Shown piece by piece: positions 32,413 to 47,762 of a DNA stretch of 48,833 nucleotides. The first letter of the stretch is position 1. Each line of letters opens with the position of its first letter. This stretch comes from a virus (lineage: Duplodnaviria > Caudoviricetes), in IMG/VR virus record IMGVR_UViG_3300016667_000424, positions 1 through 48,833 of that record, one strand, 5' to 3'. The notes under the pieces are model-generated. The model was given only the letters and a program-made list of their open reading frames with translations. It made no database searches and was not told the origin of the DNA. The translations under genes and the position numbers were made by a program.

Positions 32413-32413
32413 G

Positions 32414-34042
32414 TCAGTAAGAGCCTCCCCCGATTGCCTTGTACGAGTCGCTACCGCCGTAGTCGGGTTGCATGACGGCGATGTATCGTAGTGCGTCGAT
32501 TGGGTCTTTGGACGCACCCTTCTCGTTGTCCAGACCAGTCCACTCGCGCAGGCACCACATCAGGTTGTGGCACTCCTCGGAGATGAACAGCTTGGGCTGG
32601 TTGATGGCTGAAATTTCTTGGTTCTGGTCGTAGGCGAACCAGTCGTTGATGATGGAAATGCCCTCCTCAAGCCTAAGACCAGCGGCTGGAGTGAAGTACA
32701 TGGCGAACGGCTCCTCATCCAATAGCTGAAGAAGCGTGGTTCCGCCCTCTTTGTTGATTACAGGAGAGCCTGCCGCCCTCGGGTCGATGTACCTTTCGGC
32801 GATTTCTTCGCCTTCTTCGAGCGTGAGGATGTGTTCCTTGATTTCCGAGAGACCCATCCCCGCACCTTGCTTCTGGGCAGGTCCGGGACGCCCGTCTGGC
32901 TTTTCCGACGGCAACGCCCATTCGCCCATGCTGATGTCTGGCCACTCTCGGTAGACATACTTGTTTCCGAACTCATCAATACGTAGCCACACCATGAACC
33001 AATTTCTGGCTCCAGCAGGGTCCACCGCCATGTAATTGGTTCCCTCTTTCGGGATTTGGTCCGCAGGGATGATGTTTGCTTCTCCGAATCTCGGGAATTG
33101 GGAGCCAGCGAGCGATTCCGCCCAGCCGTACGCACGGATTTTGACTTCATAGGGGCCTCGTCCTCTCAAAGCTAGCTTGATTTGCTCGAACGGAGAGTAC
33201 TTATTCAGGATTGAATGGAACCAGATTACATTAGCGCTACCCTTGGAGCACTCCGCTATGTATGGCATGTGGCCCTTAGGAATCCCCGGCACGTTCTGAG
33301 TCTCTGGAAGTAGGTCGGCAAAGCGGGTCTTTTTGATGCGGCACCCGGCGACGTAATCCTTGACGACTGGCGTGAAGCCCGTGATGGGCGTGAACGTCAG
33401 AATCATCTTGCCGCTTCGGGTGACAAGTCGGTAGCGGAGCGTCTCAATCCAGTCCTGCGGGACAAGCTCATCGCACCAAATCAGGTCAGGTTCGCCACCT
33501 TCGATGACCTTCTTCTCCTGCCCGTAGTTCATGAAGAAGCATTGCGAGCGGTTAGGAAGGACGAACGTGGCGTCGGTGAAGCCGTTCTTCTGCGAGTACT
33601 GGATGTTCGTGACCTTGGTCTTCTTGGCGTTCTTGAACTCAGGAGGCATGTACTTCCAGATGACGGCCTGTTGCATCTGGATGGAGGTCTGGGACGTTGT
33701 GTGCAGGCACCAAATTCTGGAATTAGGCCTAGTGCAAAGCAGTTGCATCACCCTCTTTGCCGCGTACTCCGTCTTTCCCGCTCGATTTCCGCCCATGATG
33801 AGTAGCTCGTTGCCGCTCATCAGTAGCTTGTCAGCGTCAGCCCAGCTTTCAGGCTCGTAGCCGTGCCTGTACGGGTCGGCGATTTCTGCCTGAATCTTCT
33901 CTTCGCGCCTCTTCAGGACTTCGGCGGTCTTCTCAGGCCCAATCGCTTGGGCAAGCGAGACTACTTCATCCTCCGTAGGAAGGTGAATGATGGGGTGCTT
34001 CGTGAGTCGCAACCCTGCCACGTTCACCACATCCAAGCTCAT
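32414..34042 (-). CDS. terL: Terminase large subunit
   Basis: Walker A GGNRAGKT, Walker B LIWCDE, LTFTP coupling motif, nuclease motifs AVDPAG and DPIDALRY. Confidence 0.95.
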   Translation of the reverse strand: MSLDVVNVAGLRLTKHPIIHLPTEDEVVSLAQAIGPEKTAEVLKRREEKIQAEIADPYRHGYEPESWADADKLLMSGNELLIMGGNRAGKTEYAAKRVMQLLCTRPNSRIWCLHTTSQTSIQMQQAVIWKYMPPEFKNAKKTKVTNIQYSQKNGFTDATFVLPNRSQCFFMNYGQEKKVIEGGEPDLIWCDELVPQDWIETLRYRLVTRSGKMILTFTPITGFTPVVKDYVAGCRIKKTRFADLLPETQNVPGIPKGHMPYIAECSKGSANVIWFHSILNKYSPFEQIKLALRGRGPYEVKIRAYGWAESLAGSQFPRFGEANIIPADQIPKEGTNYMAVDPAGARNWFMVWLRIDEFGNKYVYREWPDISMGEWALPSEKPDGRPGPAQKQGAGMGLSEIKEHILTLEEGEEIAERYIDPRAAGSPVINKEGGTTLLQLLDEEPFAMYFTPAAGLRLEEGISIINDWFAYDQNQEISAINQPKLFISEECHNLMWCLREWTGLDNEKGASKDPIDALRYIAVMQPDYGGSDSYKAIGGGSY

Positions 34043-34614
34043 TCATCCTCCTCCTCCATGTTGGAGTAGGTGGCCGCCAGACCTGCGTCGTATTGCTTGA
34101 GGTTAAGGACTGGGAACGCACCATTGAAGGTAAGTGCCCTGAATCGGAACGGACCAGTGGTCACGCCAGACGCCGGGACGCCCATCATCGGCACGAAATT
34201 CCTCATGTTGCCAATTGCCTCCCTCGCCAGACGCGAGTTAACGCCCGAAGTGCCAACTCGGCCGAAGGCCGAAGTAAAATTTTTTGAAGACTTGATTGTA
34301 GACTTCGCACCGCCCCCAGAGAGGTCTCTCTGTGGCGGGATACGCTCAGTCTGCTTGACCATGCCAGTAGTGGCAGGGCCTTGGAGATTAGCCATCGGGT
34401 GGTCTCCCCAATAGGACTTACGGCCCTCCAGAGCCTTGTTGCTGGCTTCGAGCTCAGTCCAATGCGTGAGCTGACCCAAGCTGTTCCTCTCGAAGGAGGA
34501 TTCCAGCTTGGCGTCGCCCCGCGTACCCATCTTTCGCTCAAGGCTAAGAATCGCCGCCGGGTCCAGCCTTGGGTTATCCCCGCTGGAAGTGATGACGTCC
34601 TTATCCTCGGCCAT
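34039..34614 (-). CDS. Hypothetical late protein (191 aa)
   Basis: Coupled ORF (TAAATG at its start, ATGA at its end). Confidence 0.6.
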   Translation of the reverse strand: MAEDKDVITSSGDNPRLDPAAILSLERKMGTRGDAKLESSFERNSLGQLTHWTELEASNKALEGRKSYWGDHPMANLQGPATTGMVKQTERIPPQRDLSGGGAKSTIKSSKNFTSAFGRVGTSGVNSRLAREAIGNMRNFVPMMGVPASGVTTGPFRFRALTFNGAFPVLNLKQYDAGLAATYSNMEEEDE

Positions 34615-34719
34615 TTAACCGACGATGGAATACCAGATGTCCTTGAGCTTCTCGGAGTATCGGGCGCCGACGTAGACGCCGCCGAGGAAGGTGACGGATG
34701 CGATGATGAGCGTAATCAT
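34615..34719 (-). CDS. Small single-TM membrane protein (34 aa, MITLIIASVTFLGGVYVGARYSEKLKDIWYSIVG)
   Basis: ATGA overlap with the upstream stop; fills the gap exactly. Confidence 0.65.
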   Translation of the reverse strand: MITLIIASVTFLGGVYVGARYSEKLKDIWYSIVG

Positions 34720-35030
34720 TTGAACGGGTCGAATTTGGAGCGTTCGCCGGGGGCGTAGGTCTCGCCACGTCGCCATTGGTTGACGCGGCCGAGCTCGTTG
34801 TTGACTTCGAGGGTATGCTTGTTGCCGTACCTGTCGGTCTTCATCTTGCGACCCCTCTGAAGGGTGCTTTCGGAGAGACGAAGTTCTTCGAGCTTGGCGA
34901 ACGGGATACCCTGCTTTTTCTTCGTCCAAGCGGAAGACAGACCCTTCGCGGAGTCTGGCTTCCCGAGGACCTTGCCACCCGTACTGAAGAGTTTGGCGGC
35001 GGAAGAAAGAAGCTTACGGGGAATCTTCAT
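34716..35030 (-). CDS. Basic hypothetical protein (104 aa)
   Basis: K/R-rich, ATGA-coupled. Confidence 0.65.
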   Translation of the reverse strand: MKIPRKLLSSAAKLFSTGGKVLGKPDSAKGLSSAWTKKKQGIPFAKLEELRLSESTLQRGRKMKTDRYGNKHTLEVNNELGRVNQWRRGETYAPGERSKFDPFK

Positions 35031-35899
35031 CGAGAGGCGTTCTTCTGTCGCTGGTAGTGGTTCTGCAGGGCGTCGTTGGCCCTGTGGACGCCATAGCCAG
35101 CGGCGATGGAGCCAGCGGTGATGATGCCAGCACGGCGGTTCTTGGACATGCCGCCCGTCGAGTTGCCGTAGATGTCCCTGTTGCCACGCATCTTGTTGGC
35201 CTGATTGACGATGCCCTTATGCTTGCCAGCCCAATCGTTGTAATCGGAAGGCGAGACGCCGCCAGCAGGACGCGGAGGCTTGTTGATGATGCCACCGCCA
35301 CTAGACTTCGGCTTCTGCTTGGTCATGTAGTTCTTGTACTTGTCGGCGCGAGCCTGAGCCGCGGCCATGTCCTCAGGAGTAGCGACCTTGGTCTTAGGCT
35401 TGCCGACGGGAACGGCCCAATTCTTGCCATTGGAACCGGGGCTAGAGGCCGAAGCCCTGCGGGCCATGCCGTCGGAGATATTCTTCTGCTTGGAGACTCG
35501 TCCAGCGTTGTCACGGCCGACGCCCTTGAGCATGTCGCCGACAGTATTGTAACGGCCAGCGTTATCGAAATTGCTGACGGGCTTGCTGTAAGGCTTGAGG
35601 TCGCTCAGGTGCAGATTGCCACGACGACCAGCGTCGTAGCCAGCTCGGGCGTCCTTGACGCCTCGCGCGGCCGCGGCACCAGCGTTGTTGACCGCGTCGC
35701 GAGCACCGCGAGCACCCTTGATGGTCGCGGCTTGCGTGTTGCGAGTAGCGGCACCGAGGTCATCTACCTGTTTGCCGATGCCGGAAGCGAGCTTCTTGGC
35801 ACCAGAGCCGAGCTTCTCGCCAATCTTGCTACCGAGTTGAGTGAGGTACCTTACGCCTTTGCCAGCGAGGCGACCTGCTTTGTACGGATTGATAGCCAT
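35027..35899 (-). CDS. Highly basic K/R/G/A-rich protein (290 aa), possible DNA-binding core protein
   Basis: Composition; C-terminal AGIITAGSIAAGYGV segment. Confidence 0.65.
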   Translation of the reverse strand: MAINPYKAGRLAGKGVRYLTQLGSKIGEKLGSGAKKLASGIGKQVDDLGAATRNTQAATIKGARGARDAVNNAGAAAARGVKDARAGYDAGRRGNLHLSDLKPYSKPVSNFDNAGRYNTVGDMLKGVGRDNAGRVSKQKNISDGMARRASASSPGSNGKNWAVPVGKPKTKVATPEDMAAAQARADKYKNYMTKQKPKSSGGGIINKPPRPAGGVSPSDYNDWAGKHKGIVNQANKMRGNRDIYGNSTGGMSKNRRAGIITAGSIAAGYGVHRANDALQNHYQRQKNASR

Positions 35900-35923
35900 G
35901 GGCTTTTTATTTGGCGGCGGCGG

Positions 35924-35965
35924 TTAGCACCGCTTTCCACCTTTCTTCTTGGTGTTCTTCTTCAT
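35924..35965 (-). CDS. Basic micro-peptide MKKNTKKKGGKRC
   Basis: ATG overlaps the upstream TGA (ATGA); 13 codons then TAA. Confidence 0.5.
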   Translation of the reverse strand: MKKNTKKKGGKRC

Positions 35966-36471
35966 TGCTGTGGAGAATTGCGTTTGATGAGAGTGTTCAG
36001 TCGGAGGATTGAAGTCGGGCGATGCTCGCAGAAAAATTTGCCTCCGCGATGCTTAACCACGATAGGCATGCGCGCTTTGAACGGCCTTGAGTCGAAAACG
36101 TTGCAGAAGACCGACTTTCCGTTCTCGAGCTTGACCAGCATGACGCGGCGATTGGGGTAATCGCATCGGATTACCTCAGCCTTCTCGATGGTCTCCGGGT
36201 CGGCCTCCGCGGGCTTCATGACGACGATTTCGGCAGGCTTGTCGGCCTGAGTCCTCGCATGCACCTCAATCAGGCCGAACTTGGCGACGACCAAATTCCA
36301 GCCGTTCTCGGTGAACACGACTGGACACGTCCTGAGCGGTCTGGAGCCCTGAGGCATCCGTTCCCAATGTTCGCCCTCATTGAGCGATTTGCGGAAAGCG
36401 ACCAATTCGTCCTTAGGGACGCCGAAACGCTCTACTACGTCAGATTCCTTCCATTGGACGAAATCGCTCAC
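35962..36471 (-). CDS. Hypothetical protein (about 169 aa, GTG start)
   Basis: GTGA overlap with the rusA stop; N-terminal DNA-binding-like part and a small C-terminal beta domain. Confidence 0.65.
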   Translation of the reverse strand: MSDFVQWKESDVVERFGVPKDELVAFRKSLNEGEHWERMPQGSRPLRTCPVVFTENGWNLVVAKFGLIEVHARTQADKPAEIVVMKPAEADPETIEKAEVIRCDYPNRRVMLVKLENGKSVFCNVFDSRPFKARMPIVVKHRGGKFFCEHRPTSILRLNTLIKRNSPQQ

Positions 36472-36953
36472 TTGCTCAGATGGTCGATGACCGCCCCCAT
36501 TAGCGTGGAATCGATGTGTTCGGCCCGCTTCACCCAAACGCCCAAAAATGGCTTATCGGTGCGAAACTTCATGACCTTGCCGAAAACGACCTGACAGTCG
36601 TCGTACCAGAATCCGCAGTTCGTCAGCGAATCGCACACGGCCTTGGCCAAGTTGTCAAAGTCCGGCCTCGTCGCCATGTGGACAGTCTTGCCCTTGTCGG
36701 CCAAAACGTTCGGAAACCCGAAATACAGAGTCAACTCCAGCGGTCCCGTGTAGGGCTTGTCAGGAGCATGCTTGGAAGCCTTCAGCTCAAACTCCTTCAT
36801 CCAAGCCTTGATGGCCGACTTCGTGGTCTTGCCCACGAACATCCGGTTGTCCTTGGTCTTCAGGATTCGCAGGTCCGACTGGTGAGTCGTCTTAATCGGG
36901 ACGATGTCCACGATGAACTTGCGCTCGAAATAGTTGGGGATGTCCTCAGCCAT
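36468..36953 (-). CDS. rusA: RusA-family Holliday junction resolvase
   Basis: TRPDFDNLAKAVCDSL...DDCQVV signature. Confidence 0.92.
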   Translation of the reverse strand: MAEDIPNYFERKFIVDIVPIKTTHQSDLRILKTKDNRMFVGKTTKSAIKAWMKEFELKASKHAPDKPYTGPLELTLYFGFPNVLADKGKTVHMATRPDFDNLAKAVCDSLTNCGFWYDDCQVVFGKVMKFRTDKPFLGVWVKRAEHIDSTLMGAVIDHLSK

Positions 36954-36956
36954 TGG

Positions 36957-36990
36957 TTGACAGTCATCAACAAGACTCACAGCTTGTCAA
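36957..36990. promoter_or_regulatory. Overlapping divergent sigma70-type promoters, probably leaderless
   Basis: TTGACA at 36957 (+) with CAGCTT after a 17-nt spacer and ATG at 36993; TTGACA at 36990 (-) with ATG at 36953. Confidence 0.6.
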
Positions 36991-36992
36991 CA

Positions 36993-37625
36993 ATGGACAA
37001 CGAGAGACTTGATACCAACCCCTCTTCCAATCATTCGGCCAAGAGGGTATCCAAGGAACGACGCGACAAGGTCGAGGAACTGCTTCGCGCTGGCATGCCC
37101 ATCCTCGACGTAGCCAAGGAGGTCAAGATGTCCCCCAACAACGTCATGGCCATCAAGAAGACCATGCCAGAGACCACCGGGCTACAGGACGAGTTCAAGG
37201 CGACCACAGTCCGCAACCTAAAGGCCTTCGTCCAGAGGGCTTCCCAGAAACTGGTCGATGAGCTGGACAACCTCCATGTCAGCCAAGTCCCCATCGCCAT
37301 GGGTATCGCCATCGACAAGATTCAGACCCTCCAAGACCAGCCTCAGGCGGTGGTCGAGCATCGTTTTAGCATCAGCCACGAAGCCCTGTCGGCCATGCTC
37401 AAGTCCAAGGGCAAGGGGGTCAAACTCGACTCGGACGATGCCATCGAGGTCGAACTGGGCCAGAAGAGGCCCGAAAGCACGGCCAAGTTCCTGTCTTGGG
37501 CTCAGGACCCTAAAGCTTTTTTGGGCAAAACGGAATCAGATGACAATCCGTCACCAGATTTCCAATTCCCGGACGTTGGACCCCCCCCGCCCCCTTCAGA
37601 ACCTGAGCCAGAAGGTCAGGATTGA
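36993..37625 (+). CDS. Terminase small subunit-like HTH protein (210 aa)
   Basis: N-terminal HTH (GMPILDVAKEVKMSPNNV) and helical IAMGIAIDKIQTL..QP..VVEHR oligomerisation-type motif. Confidence 0.65.
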   Translation: MDNERLDTNPSSNHSAKRVSKERRDKVEELLRAGMPILDVAKEVKMSPNNVMAIKKTMPETTGLQDEFKATTVRNLKAFVQRASQKLVDELDNLHVSQVPIAMGIAIDKIQTLQDQPQAVVEHRFSISHEALSAMLKSKGKGVKLDSDDAIEVELGQKRPESTAKFLSWAQDPKAFLGKTESDDNPSPDFQFPDVGPPPPPSEPEPEGQD

Positions 37626-37653
37626 ATTTCGCACAACATGAATTATGTCTAGT
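37626..37653 (+). other. dif-like XerC/XerD recombination site
   Basis: ATTTCGCACAA-CATGAA-TTATGTCTAGT vs E. coli dif GGTGCGCATAA-TGTATA-TTATGTTAAAT; 11-6-11 layout; intergenic. Confidence 0.7.
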
Positions 37654-37690
37654 TGGACCTGATTCATGACCCAATCACACACGATTAGCG

Positions 37691-37748
37691 TGTCAAAGCG
37701 GTTAGATGAGGCTGAGGGGCTTGACATGGGGGGTCTCTATTCTAGGGT
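37691..37748. promoter_or_regulatory. Back-to-back TTGACA promoter candidates
   Basis: TTGACA on - at 37696 and on + at 37721 (TAGGGT after a 16-nt spacer). Confidence 0.35.
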
Positions 37749-37847
37749 TACCATGGGTCGCGCGTCGGGTCATCTAGGGTCATGTCCCTTCAGGCTCTAG
37801 GATGGCCTAGGAAGCCCGATTAAGGTCTAGGCTAGGTGATGTCATGT

Positions 37848-38315
37848 TCACTTCACCATCCTGCCTTGGACGGCAAATGGTAAGGTCCTGCAAGCAATCA
37901 GCCAGAGGGACGGGATAGGCATCAGGATGACCTTGGCGGCACTATCGTCGCCGCCTGAGACCAAGCGAGCCCCGAAACTGGCCGGTGTCCTGATGGCCTG
38001 ACGCAAAGCCTCCTTAAGGTCTTGGACAGGGAGGACAAGGCACATGGCTGGGACATCATTGAGCTTGAAGATGTGCACCCAGTAATCGGCCTCCGTGATG
38101 GCGATGCCTGATGCCTTGCCTCTGCACTCGTACTCGAACACGGCATTGCCTGTGGTGGCCCATGTGTCTCGTTCGGTCTTCACCTCGACCTTGGCTTGGT
38201 CTGTGCCTAGCCAAGCGAGCCAGCGCTCGCCCTCTTGACCATACTGCAGGTCGATGTCGAACTTGGCTCTACTCGAGCCAGAGGAGCGGGATGCCGAGTT
38301 GTCGTAGTGAGTCAT
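37848..38315 (-). CDS. PD-(D/E)xK-like phage nuclease-fold protein (155 aa)
   Basis: KFDIDLQYGQEGE..VEVKTERD.W..TGN..E.E..GK.SGI..T.ADYW. Confidence 0.7.
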   Translation of the reverse strand: MTHYDNSASRSSGSSRAKFDIDLQYGQEGERWLAWLGTDQAKVEVKTERDTWATTGNAVFEYECRGKASGIAITEADYWVHIFKLNDVPAMCLVLPVQDLKEALRQAIRTPASFGARLVSGGDDSAAKVILMPIPSLWLIACRTLPFAVQGRMVK

Positions 38316-38964
38316 GGTGTGCGTAGATGAGGTTCTCGTACCGGGTGCCTGTGGCCATCTTGCGTGATGCCATGGTGCGGGTGTAGCCGACAGAGGTGAG
38401 CGGCTTGGTGACGTAGGTATCGAATGTGACCATGCTAGGGCAATGGTCTGTGAACGTCCTACGCAGGCCCTGCATGCGTGGTATCTTGGCGAGTATGCTC
38501 GGGCCTAGTGAGTAGCATGCGTAGATGAGCTGAGGGCTGGGAGGAGCTCCGTGGCTGGTCCGAAATTTGTCCACTATGGCCCTGATGAACGTAGTTGCAT
38601 ACTCTCGGGCCACTCTGGGCTTGAACGCATCATGGTAGGGATACACAGGCAGGCACAGCTTAGCCCTCATGTCGCTGATGTCATTCCACGCACTCTGGTG
38701 TATCTGAAATGCACCTATGGCCGGGCCATCGAGATGTGTCTTGTCGCCGATGGCGTTCGGCTGGTTGTCTGATTCGATGAGTGCAATGGCGTGCGCTAGC
38801 GCTCGCTCATCTGCGTGAATGCTAAGATGCATTGGCTTGCGTTGGCTCGGTATCCGGGTTGGGGTATGGCTCATGGCAACGCACAAACCAAAAGGGAAGA
38901 AGAACAACGACGCGACCAATCCAGCTCGCAAGCAACTGGGCAAGAGTGGAGTCGAGGCGTTCAT
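38269..38964 (-). CDS. Lysozyme-fold muralytic enzyme (transglycosylase / i-type-like), probably with a signal peptide
   Basis: AIALIESDNQPNAIGD..AIGAFQIHQSAW; hydrophobic LRAGLVASLFFFPFGLCVA near the N-terminus; start uncertain. Confidence 0.75.
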   Translation of the reverse strand: MNASTPLLPSCLRAGLVASLFFFPFGLCVAMSHTPTRIPSQRKPMHLSIHADERALAHAIALIESDNQPNAIGDKTHLDGPAIGAFQIHQSAWNDISDMRAKLCLPVYPYHDAFKPRVAREYATTFIRAIVDKFRTSHGAPPSPQLIYACYSLGPSILAKIPRMQGLRRTFTDHCPSMVTFDTYVTKPLTSVGYTRTMASRKMATGTRYENLIYAHHDSLRQLGIPLLWLE

Positions 38965-39325
38965 TGATAAGACGAAGATGTACGACAATGACGAGGTGAG
39001 CAAGATGCTAATGCTAGAGCCGCGCGAGTGGCTGGACTACGCATGCATCGGCGTCGCCGAAGAAGCGAACGGCACATACAGAGCCGTCTACGACCTGAAC
39101 ATTCTTGAGTACGCATATGCACTCTCGTTCGCGTATGATGAATTCAAGTACAAGAGTTTCGACAAGCTCATCATCGCGATGTCGCCTGAGCATGTGGACA
39201 TGGCCGAGGAGTGGGTCTCGTATAATACAATCAGAGGGGCGGGCTACATGGGCCCTACAGCACCCCTATTCGTGCGTTCCCATGCTGGGGACGACTGGCA
39301 AACCGGGGAAAAGTGGGGTAAATAG
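38873..39325 (+). CDS. Conserved phage hypothetical protein (150 aa)
   Basis: LDYACIG..AVYD...AEEWVSYNTIRGAGYMGPTAPLFV pattern of a common small phage family; start could instead be 38978. Confidence 0.7.
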   Translation: MATHKPKGKKNNDATNPARKQLGKSGVEAFIDKTKMYDNDEVSKMLMLEPREWLDYACIGVAEEANGTYRAVYDLNILEYAYALSFAYDEFKYKSFDKLIIAMSPEHVDMAEEWVSYNTIRGAGYMGPTAPLFVRSHAGDDWQTGEKWGK

Positions 39326-39463
39326 GCAACTGGATTGCGTTGTATATCAGCGACTTACGTAAATCACATAAATTTCTGACTACATACGCTTGACCCACGA
39401 CAATCAGAGCACATGGTGAATGGAGTCAGCTGATGAGGCTGACGCTGTTCATTCAAACATTTC

Positions 39464-39536
39464 GGTGGGGCGATACGGGCTATCAACTAGGATTCACATT
39501 CCTAGAACAAGGGTTCAAGTCCCTTCCTCACCACCA
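39464..39536 (+). tRNA. Atypical tRNA-Val(CAC) with a shortened D-arm and encoded CCA
   Basis: Acceptor GGTGGGG/CCTCACC + ACCA; T-arm AAGGG-TTCAAGT-CCCTT; anticodon arm CTAGGA-TTCACAT-TCCTAG; D-arm GATA-CGGGC-TATC. Confidence 0.7.
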
Positions 39537-39540
39537 CTTC

Positions 39541-39611
39541 GGGGATGCTTGGTAGGCCTGTTCAACCTTACATCGACACACGCTCGGGTTCGATTCCCGA
39601 CATCTCCACCA
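39541..39611 (+). ncRNA. 71-nt tRNA-Ala / tmRNA-TLD-like RNA with no D-stem and no mRNA-like domain
   Basis: GGGGATG/CATCTCC + ACCA with G3:U70; T-arm TCGGG-TTCGATT-CCCGA; centre is a single GTAGG/CTTAC hairpin. Confidence 0.7.
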
Positions 39612-39615
39612 CTCT

Positions 39616-39761
39616 GGCGCGACTTAACACCGGGCCTTGGCTACCATCCTCAATTACGAGGTGCCTAAACGCCCCTAGTGGGGCAACTCTTTACGAGGTC
39701 TTGAAACGTGTATGGTAGCACGTCCAAGCGTAAGTCGGTCTAGCATTGCCGAGCCTCACCA
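39616..39761 (+). ncRNA. Unidentified structured RNA of about 146 nt ending in ACCA
   Basis: Nested pairings CTTGG/CCAAG and CTACCAT/ATGGTAG; hairpins CCTC/GAGG, GCCCC/GGGGC and TCGG/CCGA. Confidence 0.55.
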
Positions 39762-39802
39762 CTCTCGCCCGCAAGGGCACAACCACAACACACAACACAC
39801 AC

Positions 39803-39892
39803 ATGCACATCAGCATCAACACGCTCATCGCCATCGCGGCGGCTCTGGACCTCGCTTCCTTCATCGGAATCATCGTCCTCATCGCCCGATAA
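39803..39892 (+). CDS. Small hydrophobic peptide (29 aa, MHISINTLIAIAAALDLASFIGIIVLIAR)
   Basis: AC-rich leader, typical codon usage, one TM-like segment. Confidence 0.65.
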   Translation: MHISINTLIAIAAALDLASFIGIIVLIAR

Positions 39893-39943
39893 GTGAGCGG
39901 GCCCTTCGGGGCCATAACTTTCCAACCCAAACACACACACACC

Positions 39944-40858
39944 ATGAGTAACATCATCACCAACATCAACCACGCCGTCGAGGTCAACTCGTTCAGCATG
40001 GTCAACACCAAGTCCGTCGAGAGCCGCAAGGCCCTCTACGACAGCATCGAGCGGGACCTGAAGGCCATCTTCAGCGAAGTCACCGGGTTCGACTTGAGCG
40101 AAGGCTACTACCTTCACTTCAACAAGAACGATGACGGAAGCTGGAAGACCGACCTGCATGTCAGCATCCGACAGGATGATGCGTACTGGGAGTCCACGCT
40201 TCGCCCGAGGAACAATGACCTTGAAAACTGGTGCATCCTGCCTGAGGTCGAGCACCTGCACGACAAGGGCCGAATCGCCAACTATCCCTGCCACCTGTGC
40301 TCCATCTTCAGCATCGAGGCCGAGGTCGGTGACCGCTGGTCCAAGAAGACCAAGCTGAGCGTCGGCACCGAGTACGGAGCCCACCATTACATCACCAACG
40401 AAAATCGTGATGCCATGAAGAACGGAAGCGACAAGGAGTATTGCCCTCGCCTTAACTCGTACAGCGCGTTCAAGCAAATCAAGGGCTCGCAGGAGTACGG
40501 CTACAACCAAATCAAACTGGATAAGGCCTACCGACTGTTCAAGTTCTACGTCCAGCAGTTCTACGCCCGCATCAAGGAAATCAGCGAAGGCTACTCGCTG
40601 GCCAAGGCCAAGGCCGAGCCGCACAACGAGTACCTCAGCAAGGTCAAGGCCTTCGACTCGAACCTGAAGCAACTGAACAAGCAACTGTTCGACAAGTTCA
40701 ACCCTGAAGCGAACGACAGGCAGTATCGCCCGGACTACGTCACCATCGGAAGCGAACGTATCTGGCTCATGAACGCCGACCTCCAGAGCCCCGACAACAT
40801 CGACATCGCGGCTCAGATTCTCGAACTCATCTCCAAGCTGAAGTTCAAGAAGGAGTAA
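39944..40858 (+). CDS. Early hypothetical protein (304 aa)
   Basis: Strong codon bias; hairpin plus AC-rich leader before the ATG. Confidence 0.85.
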   Translation: MSNIITNINHAVEVNSFSMVNTKSVESRKALYDSIERDLKAIFSEVTGFDLSEGYYLHFNKNDDGSWKTDLHVSIRQDDAYWESTLRPRNNDLENWCILPEVEHLHDKGRIANYPCHLCSIFSIEAEVGDRWSKKTKLSVGTEYGAHHYITNENRDAMKNGSDKEYCPRLNSYSAFKQIKGSQEYGYNQIKLDKAYRLFKFYVQQFYARIKEISEGYSLAKAKAEPHNEYLSKVKAFDSNLKQLNKQLFDKFNPEANDRQYRPDYVTIGSERIWLMNADLQSPDNIDIAAQILELISKLKFKKE

Positions 40859-40863
40859 AACCT

Positions 40864-40930
40864 TGTGGGTCGCGTTACGGGTTTAGTATTCCCCTGTAAC
40901 GTGCGTAAGCGGTCTAGTACCCGGCCCACA
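40864..40930 (+). ncRNA. Intergenic three-way-junction RNA element related to 39632-39756
   Basis: P1 TGTGGGT/GCCCACA, P2 CGCGTTACGGG/CCTGTAACGTG, junction CGTAAG, P3 CGG-TCTAGTAC-CCG. Confidence 0.6.
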
Positions 40931-40951
40931 TCCCCTTTCATCATCATGCAC

Positions 40952-41206
40952 ATGTATCAGAATCCGGTCCTTGATTGGGCCATCAACGGCAAGGGCGAAG
41001 CCCCTTCGCTGGCCAAGGCCAAGGCCTTGCTCAAGGTCCTGCAGGAATCCGACAAGGACGCCCTCAACCTCATCATCGACCTCGAAGACCGCCACAAGCG
41101 TGGCCTCGAACTCAAGGCCAACATCGAGCGTGGTATCGCCAACGTCGAGAAGTACATCAATGAAAAATCCAAGCCCAAGGCCGAAGGAGAATCCGAAAAG
41201 CCCTGA
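40952..41206 (+). CDS. Early hypothetical protein (84 aa)
   Basis: Codon bias, CAC-ATG start context. Confidence 0.75.
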   Translation: MYQNPVLDWAINGKGEAPSLAKAKALLKVLQESDKDALNLIIDLEDRHKRGLELKANIERGIANVEKYINEKSKPKAEGESEKP

Positions 41207-41378
41207 GGCCCTCAGGCTCTGGCAACAGGCTAGGCTTGCATACGCACTCTACTCTGAGTACGCATACAGCAACGACCCTTACAACGAGGCACTAGCCCTC
41301 AGCGCTTATGACCTGTGCCAGCACAGCATGGAGCGAGCGAAGGTCGCCAGCCGCACTTTCACCCAACCCAACAAATGA
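41160..41378 (+). CDS. Early hypothetical protein (72 aa)
   Basis: Fills the gap; ATGA-coupled to the exonuclease gene. Confidence 0.55.
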   Translation: MKNPSPRPKENPKSPEALRLWQQARLAYALYSEYAYSNDPYNEALALSAYDLCQHSMERAKVASRTFTQPNK

Positions 41379-42226
41379 AACACTACGACACGCACGGAGA
41401 GAACGTCATCAGTCTCAAGATTGAGAACGCGAAGCTCCTGAACCTCAGCGAGCAGGAGTACAGGCCGATGGAGGCGTTGAACCAGTCCTACATCAAGGAC
41501 ATCCACAACGTCTCGCCCTCGTACGCCGAGTACAGGCTCAAGAACCCGGAGGTCGGCCCTGCCCTGCTGTTCGGCTCCGCCCTGCATCATTACGTCCTCG
41601 AACAGAGCACGTTCTACGGACACTACGCCGTGGCTCCGTCCTGCGACAGGCGTACTAAGCTTGGAAAGGAGACGTGGGAGGCCTTCGTCGCTGAGAACGG
41701 CGATAAGACTGTCCTCAAGGAGGAGGACTTCCACACCATCCATGCGATGTACAAGTCCCTAGGCACTCTGTTCCAGAGCCATGCCGTGGGCTCCAAGTAC
41801 GTCGTCGAGCATTGCATCGTCGCCGATGCCGTCGTCTCGGAGGGCGAGTTCAAGGGCGTCCCGCTCAGGCTCAAGGCCAAGTTCGATTGGCTCAGCGAGT
41901 CTGATGACAAGCTTGTGACCAAGGACCTCAAGAGCATCGCTGACATTACGTCGGTTGCGTCGGCGTCGTACAACAATGGCTGGGCCATCCAGTCTGGGTT
42001 CTACAGCGACCTCATGACGGCCTACAAGCCCGTGCCCAACGACTTCTACTACATCCCTGTGAGCAAGGAGCCGCCCCATGACGCGCGAGTGTTCAAGGTC
42101 AGCGAGGAGATGCTCATCATCGGACGCAAGAAGTACCTGTCCGCCATCCACAAGATGCTCTGGTGGCATGCCAACGGACGCCCGGAGACTGCCGCCTTCC
42201 ACGGCATTGAAATTCTCAATGGCTAA
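41375..42226 (+). CDS. RecE / exonuclease VIII-like PD-(D/E)xK nuclease (DUF3799 type)
   Basis: ALLFGSALHHYVLE, DRRTKLGKE, LKAKFDWL, KDLKS, IQSGFY, VSKEPPH. Confidence 0.88.
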   Translation: MKHYDTHGENVISLKIENAKLLNLSEQEYRPMEALNQSYIKDIHNVSPSYAEYRLKNPEVGPALLFGSALHHYVLEQSTFYGHYAVAPSCDRRTKLGKETWEAFVAENGDKTVLKEEDFHTIHAMYKSLGTLFQSHAVGSKYVVEHCIVADAVVSEGEFKGVPLRLKAKFDWLSESDDKLVTKDLKSIADITSVASASYNNGWAIQSGFYSDLMTAYKPVPNDFYYIPVSKEPPHDARVFKVSEEMLIIGRKKYLSAIHKMLWWHANGRPETAAFHGIEILNG

Positions 42227-42887
42227 GGACTTTGAGTTTAAGGGCATCTGGATTCCGGCCCGCGTCTTTCTGGACGCGAGGCTGACCCAGTCCGACAAGT
42301 TCCTGTTCGGGGTCATCCACATACTCTGCAACGAGCGTGGATGCTTCGCTACCCGCGAGAGCTTGTCCGAGTACATGAGCCAATCCGTCCGCAACACCCA
42401 GTACAGCATCAGCCGCCTGATGGACTGTGGCTACGTCCGTAAGGACGACGATGGCGTCCTCTGGGACATCATCAGCCATACGCTGGACAGGGGTGAAAAA
42501 CCTTTCACCGGAGGGGTGAAGGTTTCTTCACCTAAGGGGCGAAGAAATTTTCACCCAGATAGTAATAAGGATGGAAACAAGGTTATGGAAAAGGCGGAGG
42601 ACTCTTCTGAGCCTGTCTTGGTCAATGATTCCTTCATCCGCAAGGACACCAAGCTGGCCGAGGTCTGGGACCGCTGGCTAGCCTTCCGACGCTCCCGTCG
42701 CTGGCCCACAAACAACGAGTACATCGAACGATGGAACACCTGCTTCACCTCTTGGGGCGCTGGCAAGGCCGCACAGGCCGTCGAGCAGAGCCTCCTGCAG
42801 GGCTGGCAGGGCATCTTTGAGCCCAAGAAGGGCTTCCCCTCCAACGAACCACCAAAGACCGACCATGACCACGCCAAGGGCTTCTGA
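42219..42887 (+). CDS. Replication initiator with N-terminal winged HTH (222 aa)
   Basis: FKGIWIP..LT..DK.L...GCFATRESLSE; C-terminal WLAFRR..VEQSLLQGWQGIF; upstream of the DnaC-like ATPase. Confidence 0.85.
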   Translation: MAKDFEFKGIWIPARVFLDARLTQSDKFLFGVIHILCNERGCFATRESLSEYMSQSVRNTQYSISRLMDCGYVRKDDDGVLWDIISHTLDRGEKPFTGGVKVSSPKGRRNFHPDSNKDGNKVMEKAEDSSEPVLVNDSFIRKDTKLAEVWDRWLAFRRSRRWPTNNEYIERWNTCFTSWGAGKAAQAVEQSLLQGWQGIFEPKKGFPSNEPPKTDHDHAKGF

Positions 42888-43554
42888 GCCACCGCTCTGC
42901 CGGAACTTCAACTGCAACAACCCGGCCCACATCCGGGAGTACGCCGAGAACATCCCTATCTACGAGACCCTGTGCAAGCCGTGCATGGTCGCTTGGGACA
43001 GGATGGTCCTATCCCATGGCATGCCCAAGGAGCCCAAGGCCGAGACGCCCATGCCCGAGTTGTTTGCCGACACGGACCCGAAGAGGCTCGGTGAGCTTGG
43101 CATGGTCGCCATGCATTACCTGCCGAGCGGGAAGGGACTGCTCATCCATGGCACCACCCGCAAGGGCAAGACCCGGACGGCTTGGTACATCGCCAACAGG
43201 CTGTGGAACGAGAACAAGTACAAGAACCGCTACCTGTTCCTCACCATGTTCGAGCTCGAAGCTCGCATCGCGGCCTCATGGGGCAACAGCACATGGGACA
43301 AGACCATGCTCCACATGACCAACGTCCCGCTCCTGTTTCTCGACGACTTAGGCAAGGAGAAGATGACTGACCGCATTGCGTCGTGCCTGTTTGCGCTGAT
43401 TGACCAGCGTACCATGCACAAGCGTAGCACCATCATCACCACGAACCTGACCGGAGATACCCTGCTGGAGCGATTCCATGACAAGGAGACCGGAGCCGCG
43501 TTCGTCGCTCGACTCAAGGACAACGACCTGTTTGAACGGGTGGCCGCACGATGA
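42865..43554 (+). CDS. DnaC/IstB-like AAA+ helicase loader
   Basis: GTTRKGKT, LLFLDDLGKE, IDQR, TIITTN; N-terminal Cys pairs. Confidence 0.9.
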   Translation: MTTPRASEPPLCRNFNCNNPAHIREYAENIPIYETLCKPCMVAWDRMVLSHGMPKEPKAETPMPELFADTDPKRLGELGMVAMHYLPSGKGLLIHGTTRKGKTRTAWYIANRLWNENKYKNRYLFLTMFELEARIAASWGNSTWDKTMLHMTNVPLLFLDDLGKEKMTDRIASCLFALIDQRTMHKRSTIITTNLTGDTLLERFHDKETGAAFVARLKDNDLFERVAAR

Positions 43555-43967
43555 GCCCAGCACTCTACATCGACCCAGAGAACAGGCTCTCTAGGGTTCC
43601 GTACAAAGTTCCGAACAACACGCACTACGTCACGCTCGCCCAATACCAGTTGATGGAACTGCAACTCAAGGCCGAGGTCGAGCGGCTGACCAATTGTAAG
43701 TCTGAAGCCGACCGATTGAAAACCGAGGTCGAGCGTTCAACTGCTTGGGGTCGTGGGCTTGAGTCCGACCTGTCCCACGCAAGGGTCGAAATCTCGTTCC
43801 TCAAGGCTGAGGCTGAGAACTCTAACCGCATCAACACCGAGTTGCTCCTCCTGTCTAATCAACAGGCAAGCGAGGTTCGCAGACTCAAGGCCGAGGTCGA
43901 GCGGCTGAAGGCTGACAATGAGCAACTGCAAAACAGGTGCGACTTCTTGGAGGGCAAAGGAAAATGA
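43551..43967 (+). CDS. Coiled-coil protein with LKAEVERL repeats (138 aa)
   Basis: 26-bp exact repeat at 43664 and 43883 plus two degenerate copies. Confidence 0.75.
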   Translation: MSPALYIDPENRLSRVPYKVPNNTHYVTLAQYQLMELQLKAEVERLTNCKSEADRLKTEVERSTAWGRGLESDLSHARVEISFLKAEAENSNRINTELLLLSNQQASEVRRLKAEVERLKADNEQLQNRCDFLEGKGK

Positions 43968-44209
43968 ACGACGAAATCAACAGGCTCGGCTTCGACGCTT
44001 GGGCCGACAACAAGATGATGAACGCCATCGAGGACCACGTGTATCAGGGAGTTGGATACGCACAGCGTGAAGCTGACGACTACAACCTCCACATCAAGTG
44101 GGACGACAAGCACATCACCTGCGTCATCCGCGCCCACACGGACGCTGGATGGCAGACCTACGAGAAGCAGATTAAGCGATGCCACAGAAACGAAGGCCAG
44201 AAAGGCTGA
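43964..44209 (+). CDS. Hypothetical protein (81 aa)
   Basis: ATGA-coupled, codon bias. Confidence 0.7.
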   Translation: MNDEINRLGFDAWADNKMMNAIEDHVYQGVGYAQREADDYNLHIKWDDKHITCVIRAHTDAGWQTYEKQIKRCHRNEGQKG

Positions 44210-44346
44210 AGCCCGGCCTTAAGCTCCTGACCCCGCACGAACAAAAAATCGTGGCAAACCATGGCAGGGAGGTGCTGGAAATGTGGAAGTCGTTGTATGC
44301 CAAGAACAAGTGGACTCCACAGCCGGACGCAAAAAAGACGAAATAA
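44179..44346 (+). CDS. Basic hypothetical protein (55 aa, MPQKRRPERL...)
   Basis: Hand-read ORF below the track's size cutoff; fills the gap. Confidence 0.55.
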   Translation: MPQKRRPERLKPGLKLLTPHEQKIVANHGREVLEMWKSLYAKNKWTPQPDAKKTK

Positions 44347-44435
44347 AACTTGTATCGAACTACAAAAGCTATTCTATCCATCACCTCGACGCTGTTAATT
44401 CAGCGTATCACTAACGACAACCAACCACACGGAAC

Positions 44436-44675
44436 ATGACCAATATCAACATCGATTACGTCAACGCCCGTATCGCCGACCTCCAAAAGGAAATCGATAC
44501 CATCAAGTCCGAGAAGGCCAACCTTGAGAACCCGACCATCAAAGGTCTGGGCATCAAGTTCGACCAACTCGACCTGAGCAAAGCCTCCGCTGTCATCCAC
44601 CTCCACAACGCTCTCATCGAGCGCGTCGAGGAACTGACGGCGAAGGTTCAGGCCCTCGAAGCGAAAGCCAAGTAA
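44436..44675 (+). CDS. Coiled-coil hypothetical protein (79 aa)
   Basis: Codon bias, AC-rich leader. Confidence 0.8.
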   Translation: MTNINIDYVNARIADLQKEIDTIKSEKANLENPTIKGLGIKFDQLDLSKASAVIHLHNALIERVEELTAKVQALEAKAK

Positions 44676-44720
44676 GCCCAAGGGGGTGCAAAGCCCCCAC
44701 CACTTTCCACACGCACACAC

Positions 44721-44921
44721 ATGAGCACCAAGCAAGAAAAACGCCGAGACAACCTCAACGAGCACCTGTGCAAGTTGATGATTGAACTCAAGGACTACGT
44801 CAAAGCCAAGCGAGCCGAATACCGAAAGAAGCCGGTCTACCTGCAGAAGGATTCCGACATCTGCGTCGATAGGCTCAGGGACGCTTTTAACGTCTTCATC
44901 AACGAAACCTACCGCGACTAA
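44721..44921 (+). CDS. Hypothetical protein (66 aa)
   Basis: Hairpin plus AC-rich leader; TAATG coupling to the next gene. Confidence 0.75.
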   Translation: MSTKQEKRRDNLNEHLCKLMIELKDYVKAKRAEYRKKPVYLQKDSDICVDRLRDAFNVFINETYRD

Positions 44922-45211
44922 TGAGCGACAAGACTAACCAGTCCTACAACGGCTATGCCACCCACGAAACGTGGGAGGTCGCCAACTACATCTCTAACGA
45001 CCCTCACCTGTACGACCTGTGCAAGCAGTTCTACGAATCCGGGTACACGTCGTGGGGTAGCCTCAGCCTCAAGCTTATGGAGTTCGGACGCCATTGGCAG
45101 TCCGTCAACAACCCAATCCGCATCGACCTGCGCGACCAGCACGTCAAGGCCGCCGAGATTACCAAACTCCTCAAAGACCTCTTCCATGAAACCCAAAAAC
45201 GCAAACGATAA
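44921..45211 (+). CDS. Conserved phage early protein of YNG...ETW type (96 aa)
   Basis: YNGYATHETWEVANYISNDPHLY. Confidence 0.75.
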   Translation: MSDKTNQSYNGYATHETWEVANYISNDPHLYDLCKQFYESGYTSWGSLSLKLMEFGRHWQSVNNPIRIDLRDQHVKAAEITKLLKDLFHETQKRKR

Positions 45212-45374
45212 CAACTCCAAGCTCCTGTGGGTCAAGGTCCCGGAGCCTCACGCAACCAAGCTTAAAGACACCGCCGAAAAAATCGGCATCTCTAGGGCTG
45301 ACTTCATGAGGCTCATCCTTATCAACTTTGTGAGCAACGAAACCAACTCCATCAACATCTCCACCCAAAAATAA
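45186..45374 (+). CDS. Ribbon-helix-helix DNA-binding protein (62 aa)
   Basis: LLWVKVPE..ATKLKDTAEKIGISRADFMRLIL. Confidence 0.75.
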   Translation: MKPKNANDNNSKLLWVKVPEPHATKLKDTAEKIGISRADFMRLILINFVSNETNSINISTQK

Positions 45375-46120
45375 TGAGCACTAACATCACGCCAGAATTC
45401 GCGGCCGCTTACGTCGCCGCAATCGCACAGACCCGCGACGTCGTCGCCGACGCCGAGAACCCGTTCCACAAGAACTCGTACGCCACGCTCGGCGCCCACA
45501 TCTCGGCCACCAAGGCCATCTTCGCACAGCACGGACTGGCCATCGTCCAGTTCCCCGTCTCGAACAGCGTCAACCGAGGTGAAATCGGAGTCGAGACCAT
45601 GGTCGTCCACCAGAGCGGAGGCTACTTCTCTCGCACCATCCTCATGCCCGTCGAGGAGAAGGTCAAAGGTCAGGACGTCGGCTCGCTCATCTCGTACCTG
45701 AGGCGTTACGCCATCGCGTCCGTCGCAAATCTGGCCACGGCTGATGACGACGCAGAGGCTGACCGCGAGGTCCGCACCATCGCCGCTCCTAAGCTTATCC
45801 AGCTTCCCAAGGAGGCCCCGAAGGCGTCGGCTCCCGCTCCGGCTCCCGCTCCCAAGGCGTCGGCCCCCATCGTCGCTCCGGGTAGCAACAGCGCCCTCGC
45901 TGAGGCTTTGGACTTCATCCTGCCGTTTGGCAAGAACAAGGGCTCTCGTCTCGGCGACCTCGCCAAGAACTCCCTCGATTGGTACATCAAGGAGTATCAG
46001 CCGAAGCCTTACAACGGCAAGATTAGCGACAAGGACATCGCTCTTCGTGCGGCCCTCGACCTGATTCGAGACGCCCGCGAATCCACGGAAATCATCTCCT
46101 CGGACGACGTCCCCTTCTAA
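45374..46120 (+). CDS. erf: ERF-family ssDNA annealing protein with an SSB-like C-terminal tip
   Basis: NPFHKNSYATL, ETMVVHQSG, GSLISYLRRY, DDDA; ends in DDVPF. Confidence 0.9.
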   Translation: MSTNITPEFAAAYVAAIAQTRDVVADAENPFHKNSYATLGAHISATKAIFAQHGLAIVQFPVSNSVNRGEIGVETMVVHQSGGYFSRTILMPVEEKVKGQDVGSLISYLRRYAIASVANLATADDDAEADREVRTIAAPKLIQLPKEAPKASAPAPAPAPKASAPIVAPGSNSALAEALDFILPFGKNKGSRLGDLAKNSLDWYIKEYQPKPYNGKISDKDIALRAALDLIRDARESTEIISSDDVPF

Positions 46121-46127
46121 ACCCTCT

Positions 46128-46199
46128 GGCCTCATCGTTCAACGGATAGGACAGGCGTTTCCTAAACGCTAAATCTAGGTTCGATTCCTAGTGGGGCCA
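46128..46199 (+). tRNA. tRNA-Arg(CCU), CCA not encoded
   Basis: Acceptor GGCCTCA/TGGGGCC, D-arm GTTC/GGAC, anticodon arm GGCGT-TTCCTAA-ACGCT, T-arm CTAGG-TTCGATT-CCTAG. Confidence 0.95.
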
Positions 46200-46222
46200 T
46201 AATTTTTCACCCGCACACGCAC

Positions 46223-46639
46223 ATGCTCAACAGCACGAACAACCAGACCGCACAGGCACCCCGCCAGCGGTATCACCGCAACGTCGGAGACCGCAAGGTC
46301 ATCCACATCAACCCGGAACTCATCGGGAACATCGCTGGGAACGAAGTCATCAGCACTTCGGTCTCCAATGATGTCCTGACCGAGCTCGAAGCCCTCTGCG
46401 TCGCCACCGGCGTCAGTCGCTCCGAAATCATCCGTGGTGCAGTCGTCCGCGAAATCGCTTTCCGGAAGTACTGCGAGACCGCTAAGGTCAAGGACGTCAC
46501 AGTCCTTTGTGGATACAAGCCGAGCGAGAAGCCTCGTACCAAGAACGAGGCCCGCGAACTTAAGCAGAAGCAAAAGAAGGAGCCGAAGCTTACTCACGCC
46601 CAGCGCGAGTACCTGAAGCGAATTCTCGCCGAAGCCTGA
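46223..46639 (+). CDS. CopG/RHH-containing regulator (138 aa)
   Basis: ISTSVSNDVLTELEALCVATGVSRSEIIRGAV. Confidence 0.75.
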   Translation: MLNSTNNQTAQAPRQRYHRNVGDRKVIHINPELIGNIAGNEVISTSVSNDVLTELEALCVATGVSRSEIIRGAVVREIAFRKYCETAKVKDVTVLCGYKPSEKPRTKNEARELKQKQKKEPKLTHAQREYLKRILAEA

Positions 46640-46652
46640 TACCTAGGCACAG

Positions 46653-46690
46653 CAAACAACAAGGGCCCCACACGGGGCCCTTTCTGTTTG
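46653..46690. terminator. Probable bidirectional intrinsic terminator between the convergent early and late units
   Basis: AAGGGCCCC-ACAC-GGGGCCCTT with A-rich 5' and T-rich 3' flanks. Confidence 0.8.
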
Positions 46691-46770
46691 TGGAAGGGCG
46701 GACTGACCAGCAGTCCATTAAGGCTTTGCCACCCCCACGACACACGCACGGGTTTAACCGAGGTGAGACT

Positions 46771-47484
46771 CTATGCTTGCGGGCTCTCTGGGCTTCGCAA
46801 GCGACATTTTACTTCCTTGTGGGTATGCAGGCCAGCGTACATGCCGTAAGCCATCCCTAGGAGGATGCAGGCACCGAAGGCCCACCTGAACCATTCGGAC
46901 TCCACGACGTCCCTCAGTACGAAGGGCGTGGCCGCACAGACACCGGACATGATGAACATGACCACGCCAGCCCTGAGCCCTTTGCCGATGAACGTATTTG
47001 CAACCACGAAAGCTGCCCCTGCGAATCCGAACACCATAGCCATCAGCAAAAACTTGTCGGACACCTTCTGCCATTCCTTCTCCTTGTTCATGGCCTTGAT
47101 GCTGTCCTTGAGCTCGTTGTTCTCCTTGTCCATCTGGGCGATGCGATTCGCCATCTTGGTAGTCTCTTCGTCCACCTTCTTGGCCTTGGCCTGTTCCGTC
47201 TCCATGGCTTTGGCGCTGGCCAGCGTAGCCTCGAACTTGCTGACCTGTTCCGCCGTCGGCTTCTTGATGCCAGACAGCCGTGTCTCGGTCAGGTCGAGCA
47301 GAGGCTTGCCCTTGCCCTCCACGTTCTTCTTGGCGACTACGATGGCCGCGGCTCCCTCGCTGGCCTCATGCTCAAGCCTGTCCACATAGGCGTCACGGGT
47401 CTTGGTGGCTGGCTCAGGCGTAGGCATCGGGGCTGGCTTGGTGGCGCAACCGACGAGCAGGAGGGACAGGATGATGGCTCTCAT
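46771..47484 (-). CDS. Lipoprotein with coiled coil and C-terminal TM helices; unimolecular-spanin candidate
   Basis: Lipobox LLVG-C13; three hydrophobic segments near the C-terminus; follows the holin. Confidence 0.65.
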   Translation of the reverse strand: MRAIILSLLLVGCATKPAPMPTPEPATKTRDAYVDRLEHEASEGAAAIVVAKKNVEGKGKPLLDLTETRLSGIKKPTAEQVSKFEATLASAKAMETEQAKAKKVDEETTKMANRIAQMDKENNELKDSIKAMNKEKEWQKVSDKFLLMAMVFGFAGAAFVVANTFIGKGLRAGVVMFIMSGVCAATPFVLRDVVESEWFRWAFGACILLGMAYGMYAGLHTHKEVKCRLRSPESPQA

Positions 47485-47762
47485 TTGATTCGCAGGACAC
47501 GGCGACGCATCAGCTCGACGACCTCAGGTGCGAACGTTCCGCACACGCTGTAGATGACAGCCTCGTAGATGGGAGGCACAAGGCCGTGCACGGCGAAGTA
47601 GGCGATGATGCCAATGATGGCACCGGCCATGGTACGCCTTACCCATACGACCCAGCTGTGCTCTTCGTCGCTGATGAGCAGACGAAGCAAGGCACCCATG
47701 GCACCGAGCGCCGCCATGAGCCACCCGCTATCCTTCAGGTCATCTAATGGGTCTGGATTCAT
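47481..47762 (-). CDS. Holin (93 aa, three TM segments)
   Basis: AALGAMGALLR, AGAIIGIIAYF, AVIYSVCG; basic C-terminus. Confidence 0.75.
   Translation of the reverse strand: MNPDPLDDLKDSGWLMAALGAMGALLRLLISDEEHSWVVWVRRTMAGAIIGIIAYFAVHGLVPPIYEAVIYSVCGTFAPEVVELMRRRVLRIK

Follow-up and report, generated by a model that had tools for sequence, protein, structure and literature searches.

The window, the whole stretch of DNA analysed here, is an entire virus record of 48,833 bases. It carries the gene content of a tailed phage, with genes for terminase, the major head protein, RusA, exonuclease VIII, a DnaC-like protein and Erf, and the best match of the terminase among cultured phages was 32%. When alternative genetic codes were scanned, the genes around the locus of interest were open in table 11. 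The early region on the + strand runs from a tRNA-Val gene through a tRNA-like gene and further structured elements to small ORFs and then to recombination and replication genes, and the two copies of the motif described here lie at its start (Table 1). The 29-aa ORF had no match in PHROG, and the 86-aa ORF is followed by the exonuclease VIII, replication initiator and DnaC-like genes. Neither promoter-like nor terminator-like sites were found at either copy, and no terminator-like site was found downstream on the + strand. Elsewhere in the window, an isolated second tRNA gene, tRNA-Arg(CCT), lies at 46127-46200 directly behind the Erf gene. In the part from 1 to 16200, ORFs on the + strand are either short or not plausible, and the AT skew points to genes on the minus strand; few minus-strand ORFs of at least 60 aa were listed there.

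Table 1. Features at the start of the early region, numbered from the first base of the window
Feature	Position	Strand	Basis or remark
tRNA-Val(CAC), first gene of the RNA cluster	39464-39536	+	ARAGORN, Rfam
tRNA-like gene, outside the motif	39541-39611	+	sequence, fold, tmRNA-model scores of orthologues
Separate conserved structured element	39617-39690	+	kept in L135, L136 and L180, where copy 1 is missing from the slot
Motif copy 1	39695-39757	+	present or absent as a unit in relatives
Copy 1 P1, GAGGT/GCCTC	39695-39699/39753-39757	+	
Copy 1 P2 arm (local)	39700-39728	+	
Copy 1 junction, CGTAAG	39729-39734	+	
Copy 1 P3 arm	39735-39752	+	
ACCA directly 3' of copy 1	39758-39761	+	
29-aa hydrophobic ORF, first coding gene after copy 1	39803-39892	+	conserved in relatives
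304-aa ORF between the copies	39944-40858	+	no PHROG match
Motif copy 2	40864-40930	+	absent from the orthologous gap of some relatives
Copy 2 P1, 7 bp	40864-40870/40924-40930	+	
Copy 2 P2 arm, stem 11 bp	40871-40903	+	
Copy 2 junction	40904-40909	+	
Copy 2 P3 arm, stem 3 bp	40910-40923	+	
86-aa ORF after copy 2	40946-41206	+	

The tRNA-like gene has an acceptor with G3:U70, a T arm and CCA, its D and anticodon arms are degenerate and variable, and a conserved GACAC word stands 5' of the T arm. Its orthologues scored 28.8 and 32.2 bits against the tmRNA model, under the cut-off of 47. It is also found in L134 (4162-4231), L127 (1878-1952, - strand), L135, L136 and L180, and in most of the clade clusters examined. 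It looks like the tRNA-like domain of tmRNA minus the coding part.

A preliminary description of this DNA, made from the sequence, had claimed two copies of a three-way-junction RNA. Both were found: the pattern CGTAAG-(T)CGGTCTAG occurs exactly twice in the 48.8-kb record and not at all in its reversed control. With the filters off, the covariance model R2 scored the two copies at 77.7 and 39.1 bits (both belong to its training set), and the next-best match in the window reached 13.9 bits. Copy 2, which ends 15 nt before the next ATG (40946), was exactly as written, including its limits, the 7-bp P1, the 11-bp P2, the CGTAAG junction and the 3-bp P3. Copy 1 had to be redrawn. It had been built from GGGC and CTTGG stems extended by a multi-hairpin insert, but these strands (39632-39640) belong to the separate upstream element, and the long-range fold that uses them, at -39.2 kcal/mol, falls 6.7 kcal/mol short of the local fold at -45.9 kcal/mol and has pair probabilities of 0.0. 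Because the relatives L135, L136 and L180 keep the neighbouring 39617-39690 yet are without exactly 39695-39761, copy 1 is a short local unit; the next ATG (39803) follows it by 45 nt. The upstream element lies outside the motif and holds the GGGC and CTTGG strands, the hairpins of the supposed insert and the CGACTTA word. It is laid out as a hairpin, CCTTGGC, a hairpin, GCCTAAAC and a GC hairpin, is found in many clade members, and had no Rfam match. As a side observation, the P2 loop of copy 2 (40885-40895) is TAGTATTCC, one letter off the origin nonanucleotide of ssDNA viruses; the other copies do not conserve it, and the resemblance is probably due to chance.

Homologues were collected by pattern and neighbouring-protein scans of viral contigs, a metagenome scan, a genome scan, a structural descriptor and two covariance models. 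The covariance-model and viral searches, a course that had been proposed in advance, yielded homologues and covariation, and the curated set consists of 33 distinct copies, 27 in the phage clade and six in five other records. At the DNA level, none of these five records, three of which are fragments, matched window positions 30000-48833, in a run without positive control. The copy in L270, a 163-kb phage, lies 18 nt after tRNA-Gln and 11 nt before tRNA-Glu, and L429 has two copies in a tRNA cluster, one of which (L429a) was found by the model alone. The copy in L308, a provirus, is 5' of an HNH gene, that in L391 is 5' of an ORF with an HNH-like motif recognised by eye, and that in L306 lies between convergent genes. 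For the copies with 19-24 stem pairs (L306, L308, L391 and L429b), arm shuffling gave an expectation of 0.025 such matches among 219 distinct pattern hits, as against 0.16 for the 17 pairs of the L270 copy among 219 pattern hits. The L270 copy was retained because of its context and because its P3 loop, CAYRCACU, inside a covarying stem, is common to L429b and L308.

Several candidates were dropped from the set. L122 is an ssDNA-virus-like locus with a different fold, and L267/L242 and L312 have a broken P2 or P3, L312 also overlapping a helicase-like ORF. L321, L349, L359, L465 and L473 have 12-17 pairs but lie inside ORFs, although some may be real; for matches with 12-17 pairs, 0.16-4.7 are expected by shuffling the 219 pattern hits. 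L154:3385 and L195 were regarded as noise of the descriptor, which gave 0.33 hits per shuffled window. The 14-15-mer of the preliminary description taken alone occurs in at least 119 viral stretches, and among the matches listed, only L101 was a true copy. The genome scan, run with one variant pattern over 185,579 species, returned 10 stretches, none of them convincing, and blastn of cultured phages with copy 1 and the L270 copy gave nothing beyond 21-27-nt pieces at an E value of 8.

Within the clade the motif is accessory. Among the 16 viral records that the neighbouring-protein search returned, six carry the motif, one carries only the sister form described below, and nine show neither in the fetched locus. 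Whole-record searches were positive for 13 of 22 records, many of which had been picked because they hold the motif, and in three records of 96-100% completeness the motif was not found by this search. Every clade copy called with confidence is located either in the RNA cluster or in one of the first intergenic gaps. Besides the three relatives without the copy-1 unit, L199 and L134 have this unit with a different P2, and the orthologous gaps of L134, L135 and L199 contain no copy 2. In the copy-2 gap of a related contig there are 83 different letters, the last 30 of which end like the motif. The motif is thus gained and lost as a whole unit among the tRNA and early genes of related phages.

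Other modules were observed in the same region of these phages. A sister motif, which shares the closing stem and has TTAAA or GTAAA as its junction, occurs in L187 (11027-11106), L202 (1397-1462), L206 (2195-2266) and L215. Multi-stem RNA modules that look unrelated to the motif occupy the same slots in L191, L211 (at the end of the RNA cluster) and L214, the first two sharing a three-stem form with AGU and AUUUGCAA linkers, and more such swapped-in modules are found in L134 (4316-4400), L133 (1697-1765) and L180 (10945-11020). In addition, a conserved unannotated element ending in AAGAACGAGGCG was seen at L308 1270-1430 (- strand) and in L488-L491; it is common to the L308 provirus and to cultured phages of Arthrobacter, Rhodococcus and Microbacterium, lies close to HNH or terminase genes, and had no Rfam match in L366. 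The motif is absent from four actinophage regions that have the element upstream in L308.

The motif is 53-71 nt long and consists of three stems, with about ten near-invariant letters clustered at the junction. Its variable parts are the loops, the P2 arm (14-36 nt), the P3 arm (12-24 nt) and the length of P1 (3-10 bp), and no copy has an unpaired linker between P3 and the closing strand. At each of the positions P1.1-4, P2.1-3 and P3.1-4, 29-33 of the 33 copies keep the pair, and a single position can show as many as six pair types. The first pair of P1 is U-G in 30 copies, C-G in two and U-A in one, P1.2 and P1.3 are G-C in all 33, P2.1 is C-G in 20 and U-A in 13, and P3.1 shows four pair types. 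On a tree of the copies, the two sides of a stem change together, with 2-8 pair changes where the changes of the two sides sum to 4-14. In the 24 aligned copies, 88.5% of the cells pair, as compared with 75.0% after shuffling (0 of 500 shuffles as high) and 22-44% with slid partners, and the covariation score was 0.430 against 0.190 for the shuffled alignments; these pairing figures lean towards the model because the copies had been chosen by a pairing descriptor. RNAalifold recovered the three-way junction from the same 24 copies unprompted, with double changes in nine of 12 pairs. In the core stems, G-U pairs outnumber A-C by 39 to 5, and therefore it is the + strand that folds, most probably as RNA. 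In isolation, the three-way fold is the predicted minimum-energy fold of 13 of the 33 copies and is at most 4.9 kcal/mol off in the rest. Loop-loop kissing, apparent by eye in some copies, failed the swap control: the 30 distinct loop pairs scored 6.1, against 5.82 ± 0.23 for swapped pairs, with 253 of 2000 swaps as high. Pairing between leader and junction is complete in only six of the 33 copies. The motif is a real, selected and covarying three-way-junction RNA module. The initial view of it as an unrecognised RNA whose stems differ and still pair is borne out by covariation in all three stems and by the lack of an Rfam match at the motif.

The invariant core consists of GG(U/C)/(G/A)CC in P1 and the junction CGYAAG, which is CGTAAG in 21 copies and CGCAAG in 12. 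GG/CC and CGYAAG were part of the search descriptor, and the copies found by the model alone (L180, L235b and L429a) carry both too. In a junction-free scan of 26 clade loci, the 5-6-nt junctions containing AA were only CGYAAG words and the GTAAA/TTAAA sister form. Thus, of the junction and loop start that had been called identical, the junction is kept in 33 of 33 copies, and the loop start CGGTCTAG is lineage-specific (nine of 33). The weight once placed on the CGGUCUAG hairpin was misplaced, since this loop is present in only nine of the 33 copies.

In the available part of Geary et al. 2011 (PMC3035441), A-minor junctions are described in which a CC:GG duplex receives a docking GNRA loop or Y(u/gNR)R triloop, and the accessible text of PMC7913685 gives GUAA, GCAA and GUGA as the loops preferred by helix receptors. 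The same consensus was found in the motif at the level of sequence, with GG/CC and CGYAAG each in 33 of 33 copies. The junction CGYAAG allows the readings C(GYAA)G and C(GYA)A, and P1 gives the invariant GG/CC receptor. Of the two sister junctions, both of which sit on this closing stem, TTAAA (L187 and L215) conforms to U(UAA)A, and GTAAA (L202/L206) departs from the triloop consensus. A folding lock can account for every one of the conserved letters, and we favour a structural role because the invariant letters fit this known junction.

Our leading interpretation, held tentatively and with less than even confidence, is that the motif may be a compact cap or boundary that resists nucleases within a processed early transcript of tRNAs and mRNA. 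It corresponds to the processing or exonuclease-blocking element among the options that the preliminary description had named, next to a ribozyme and an antiterminator. The tRNA cluster and the early genes would be co-transcribed, and C(GYAA)G or C(GYA)A would make an A-minor dock on CC:GG of the closing stem, resulting in a compact locked fold. Host RNases would cut the A/C-then-U spacers that flank tRNAs and motif modules alike, and the motif would protect the neighbouring RNA end, mostly the 5' end of the following mRNA. The position of the copies is consistent with such a cap in that about 21 of 33 have an ORF start at most 50 nt away and six more belong to tandem runs ending at one. Counted by independent slots, however, ORF leaders account for only about five of 11, and the L270 copy, both L429 copies, L154a and L180 are located among tRNAs or other RNAs. 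Similar spacer words follow the clade copies (19 of 27) and the tRNAs (14 of 18); the 7% background for these words overstates the contrast because it is mostly coding DNA. Simple hairpins already precede the same genes in relatives, whether the motif is present or not. Since hairpins are there anyway and nine of 16 records are without the motif in the fetched locus, its function is dispensable.

Phage tRNA clusters and the leaders of HNH genes are typical contexts of small ribozymes, and the motif occurs there patchily and repeatedly (5' of HNH genes in L308 and L391), as a small RNA with its near-invariant letters at the junction and with free peripheral arms. A new class of small self-cleaving ribozyme, which might cut the early transcript at, for example, the U-A or C-A step of the junction to leave 5'-OH ends, would agree with this, and we consider it rather unlikely. 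The same holds for its specific form, in which unrelated phages would cut their tRNA operons and their early or HNH-gene transcripts with a minimal pseudoknot-free ribozyme built on the A-minor junction. The known docking motif can account for all the invariant letters, no pseudoknot was found in the loops or the leader, and self-cleaving copies only 5-8 nt apart in tandem would be redundant. The core words of known classes are CUGANGA and GAAA for the hammerhead and GGUCCYAAGC, UGCAAG, CUAAGCG and AGAAA for twister, twister-sister, pistol and hairpin ribozymes; on the sense strand each was found in 0-5 of the 33 copies, and Rfam was negative, finding no ribozyme in 20 neighbouring loci. Theta ribozymes, as described in the available text of Kienbeck et al. 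2024 (PMC10879173), are HDV-like, associated with phage tRNAs and placed at most 5 nt from tRNA 3' ends. They share with the motif that both are small structured RNAs in phage tRNA clusters. In contrast, the distance from the upstream tRNA to P1 is 8-474 nt in the 29 copies that have one, most over 80 nt, and the nested pseudoknot with an unpaired J4/2 and a catalytic C is not found in the motif. A free small RNA that is excised like a tRNA and serves a host protein or a defence nuclease in trans, as decoy or ligand, would suit the L270 and L429 copies, which fill slots of tRNA size between tRNA genes and have no ORF behind them. The spacer words shared with tRNAs, the exchange with other RNA modules at clean boundaries, and the CAYRCACU loop shared by L270, L429b and L308 in a covarying stem point in the same direction. 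On the other hand, CCA follows only 10 of the 33 copies, the arm lengths are too variable for mimicry of the tRNA shape, and several copies stand alone between protein genes; a trans-acting role of this kind seems unlikely to us.

The remaining explanations appear far less probable. The signal recognition particle (SRP) Alu 5' domain (RF01854), according to the accessible portions of Kempf et al. 2014 (PMC4231752) and PMC2905702 and to the Rfam consensus, is a three-way junction of helices 2, 3 and 4 with a connector between helices 3 and 4. This topology is present in the motif and is supported by covariation; the two further have in common a short closing helix, whose pair at the junction is Y-G, and two hairpins joined by a connector that contains GYA. 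A stand-alone Alu 5' domain binding the factor site of the ribosome is nevertheless very improbable: the SRP connector is UGU(NR), as compared with CGYAAG, and UGU is found in none of the 33 copies. The loop-loop pseudoknot, helix 5 and S domain of the SRP RNA are all lacking in the motif. Among bacterial SRP connectors, in the 18 of 32 loci parsed by pattern, TGTAC occurred 10 times, TGTAA six times, and TGTAG and TGCAC once each. The best E value of R2 across 18 SRP loci was 0.96, and RF01854 and RF01857 gave no match in the record of the phage itself. The suggestion of a two-state switch or antiterminator, with CGACTTA competing for the junction through TAAGTCG, fared little better, and we give it hardly any weight. 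The alternative pairing is physically possible in this genome, with a predicted probability of about 0.96 in a 153-nt context (-48.9 kcal/mol), but it is not conserved: a helix of at least 7 bp can form in one of 33 copies, the mean longest helix is 4.06 against 4.16 after shuffling, and CGACTTA is retained where the motif is absent. Moreover, the + strand has no terminator-like site behind either copy. Finally, clean gain and loss and tandem copies are what a near-neutral module spreading by recombination between spacers, with no role as RNA, would produce; the repeated coupled changes and the conserved U-G pair show selection on the RNA fold, and such a module is most doubtful.

Most of the structured RNAs in phage tRNA operons have no assigned function, and the motif is one such RNA. 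What is at stake is whether it is a ribozyme of a new class, the phage equivalent of RNAs that resist exonucleases, or a decoy. The motif is tiny, with a ten-letter core, natural variants exist in several unrelated phages, and there are close relatives that carry it and others that lack it, all of which makes it experimentally tractable.

The motif family matches no RNA family catalogued in Rfam 15. In the window, Rfam 15 found only the two tRNAs and nothing at the motif; in four loci searched at E values up to 10 there was no match on any copy, and 20 loci gave tRNAs only. A tRNA or tRNA-like identity was rejected: P1 has 3-10 bp as compared with the 7-bp acceptor, UUCRA occurs in one and CCA in 10 of the 33 copies, and ARAGORN did not call the copies as tRNAs. 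The species 1 and 2 RNAs of T4 (rnaC and rnaD) are non-tRNA structured RNAs in a phage tRNA operon and are larger than the motif, which differs from them in also standing alone between protein genes and in having no Rfam match. A description of the motif was not found in the literature covered, which mostly excluded subscription journals. Four of six readable supplement files of Fremin et al. 2023 (PMC10690425) gave no match, and the motif may be among the 10,006 candidates of that work. The PeSL cassettes of T4-type phages, each a promoter plus a terminator hairpin in the available text of Arbiol et al. 2010 (PMC2839356), resemble the motif, as far as that text describes them, as repeated structured units in variable early regions with module swapping, and differ from it in that neither window copy has a promoter-like or terminator-like site. 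The A-minor junction shares with the motif the loop and receptor consensus, that is, GUAA/GCAA or C(GYA)A together with tandem G-C pairs in the adjoining helix. In the part of PMC3035441 available, this junction is a building block of rRNA, RNase P and introns, whereas in the phage motif the A-minor letters appear to be the whole conserved content of a free-standing module, a likeness at the sequence level. If the A-minor reading is true, the motif would be a natural stand-alone example of a junction used in RNA design.
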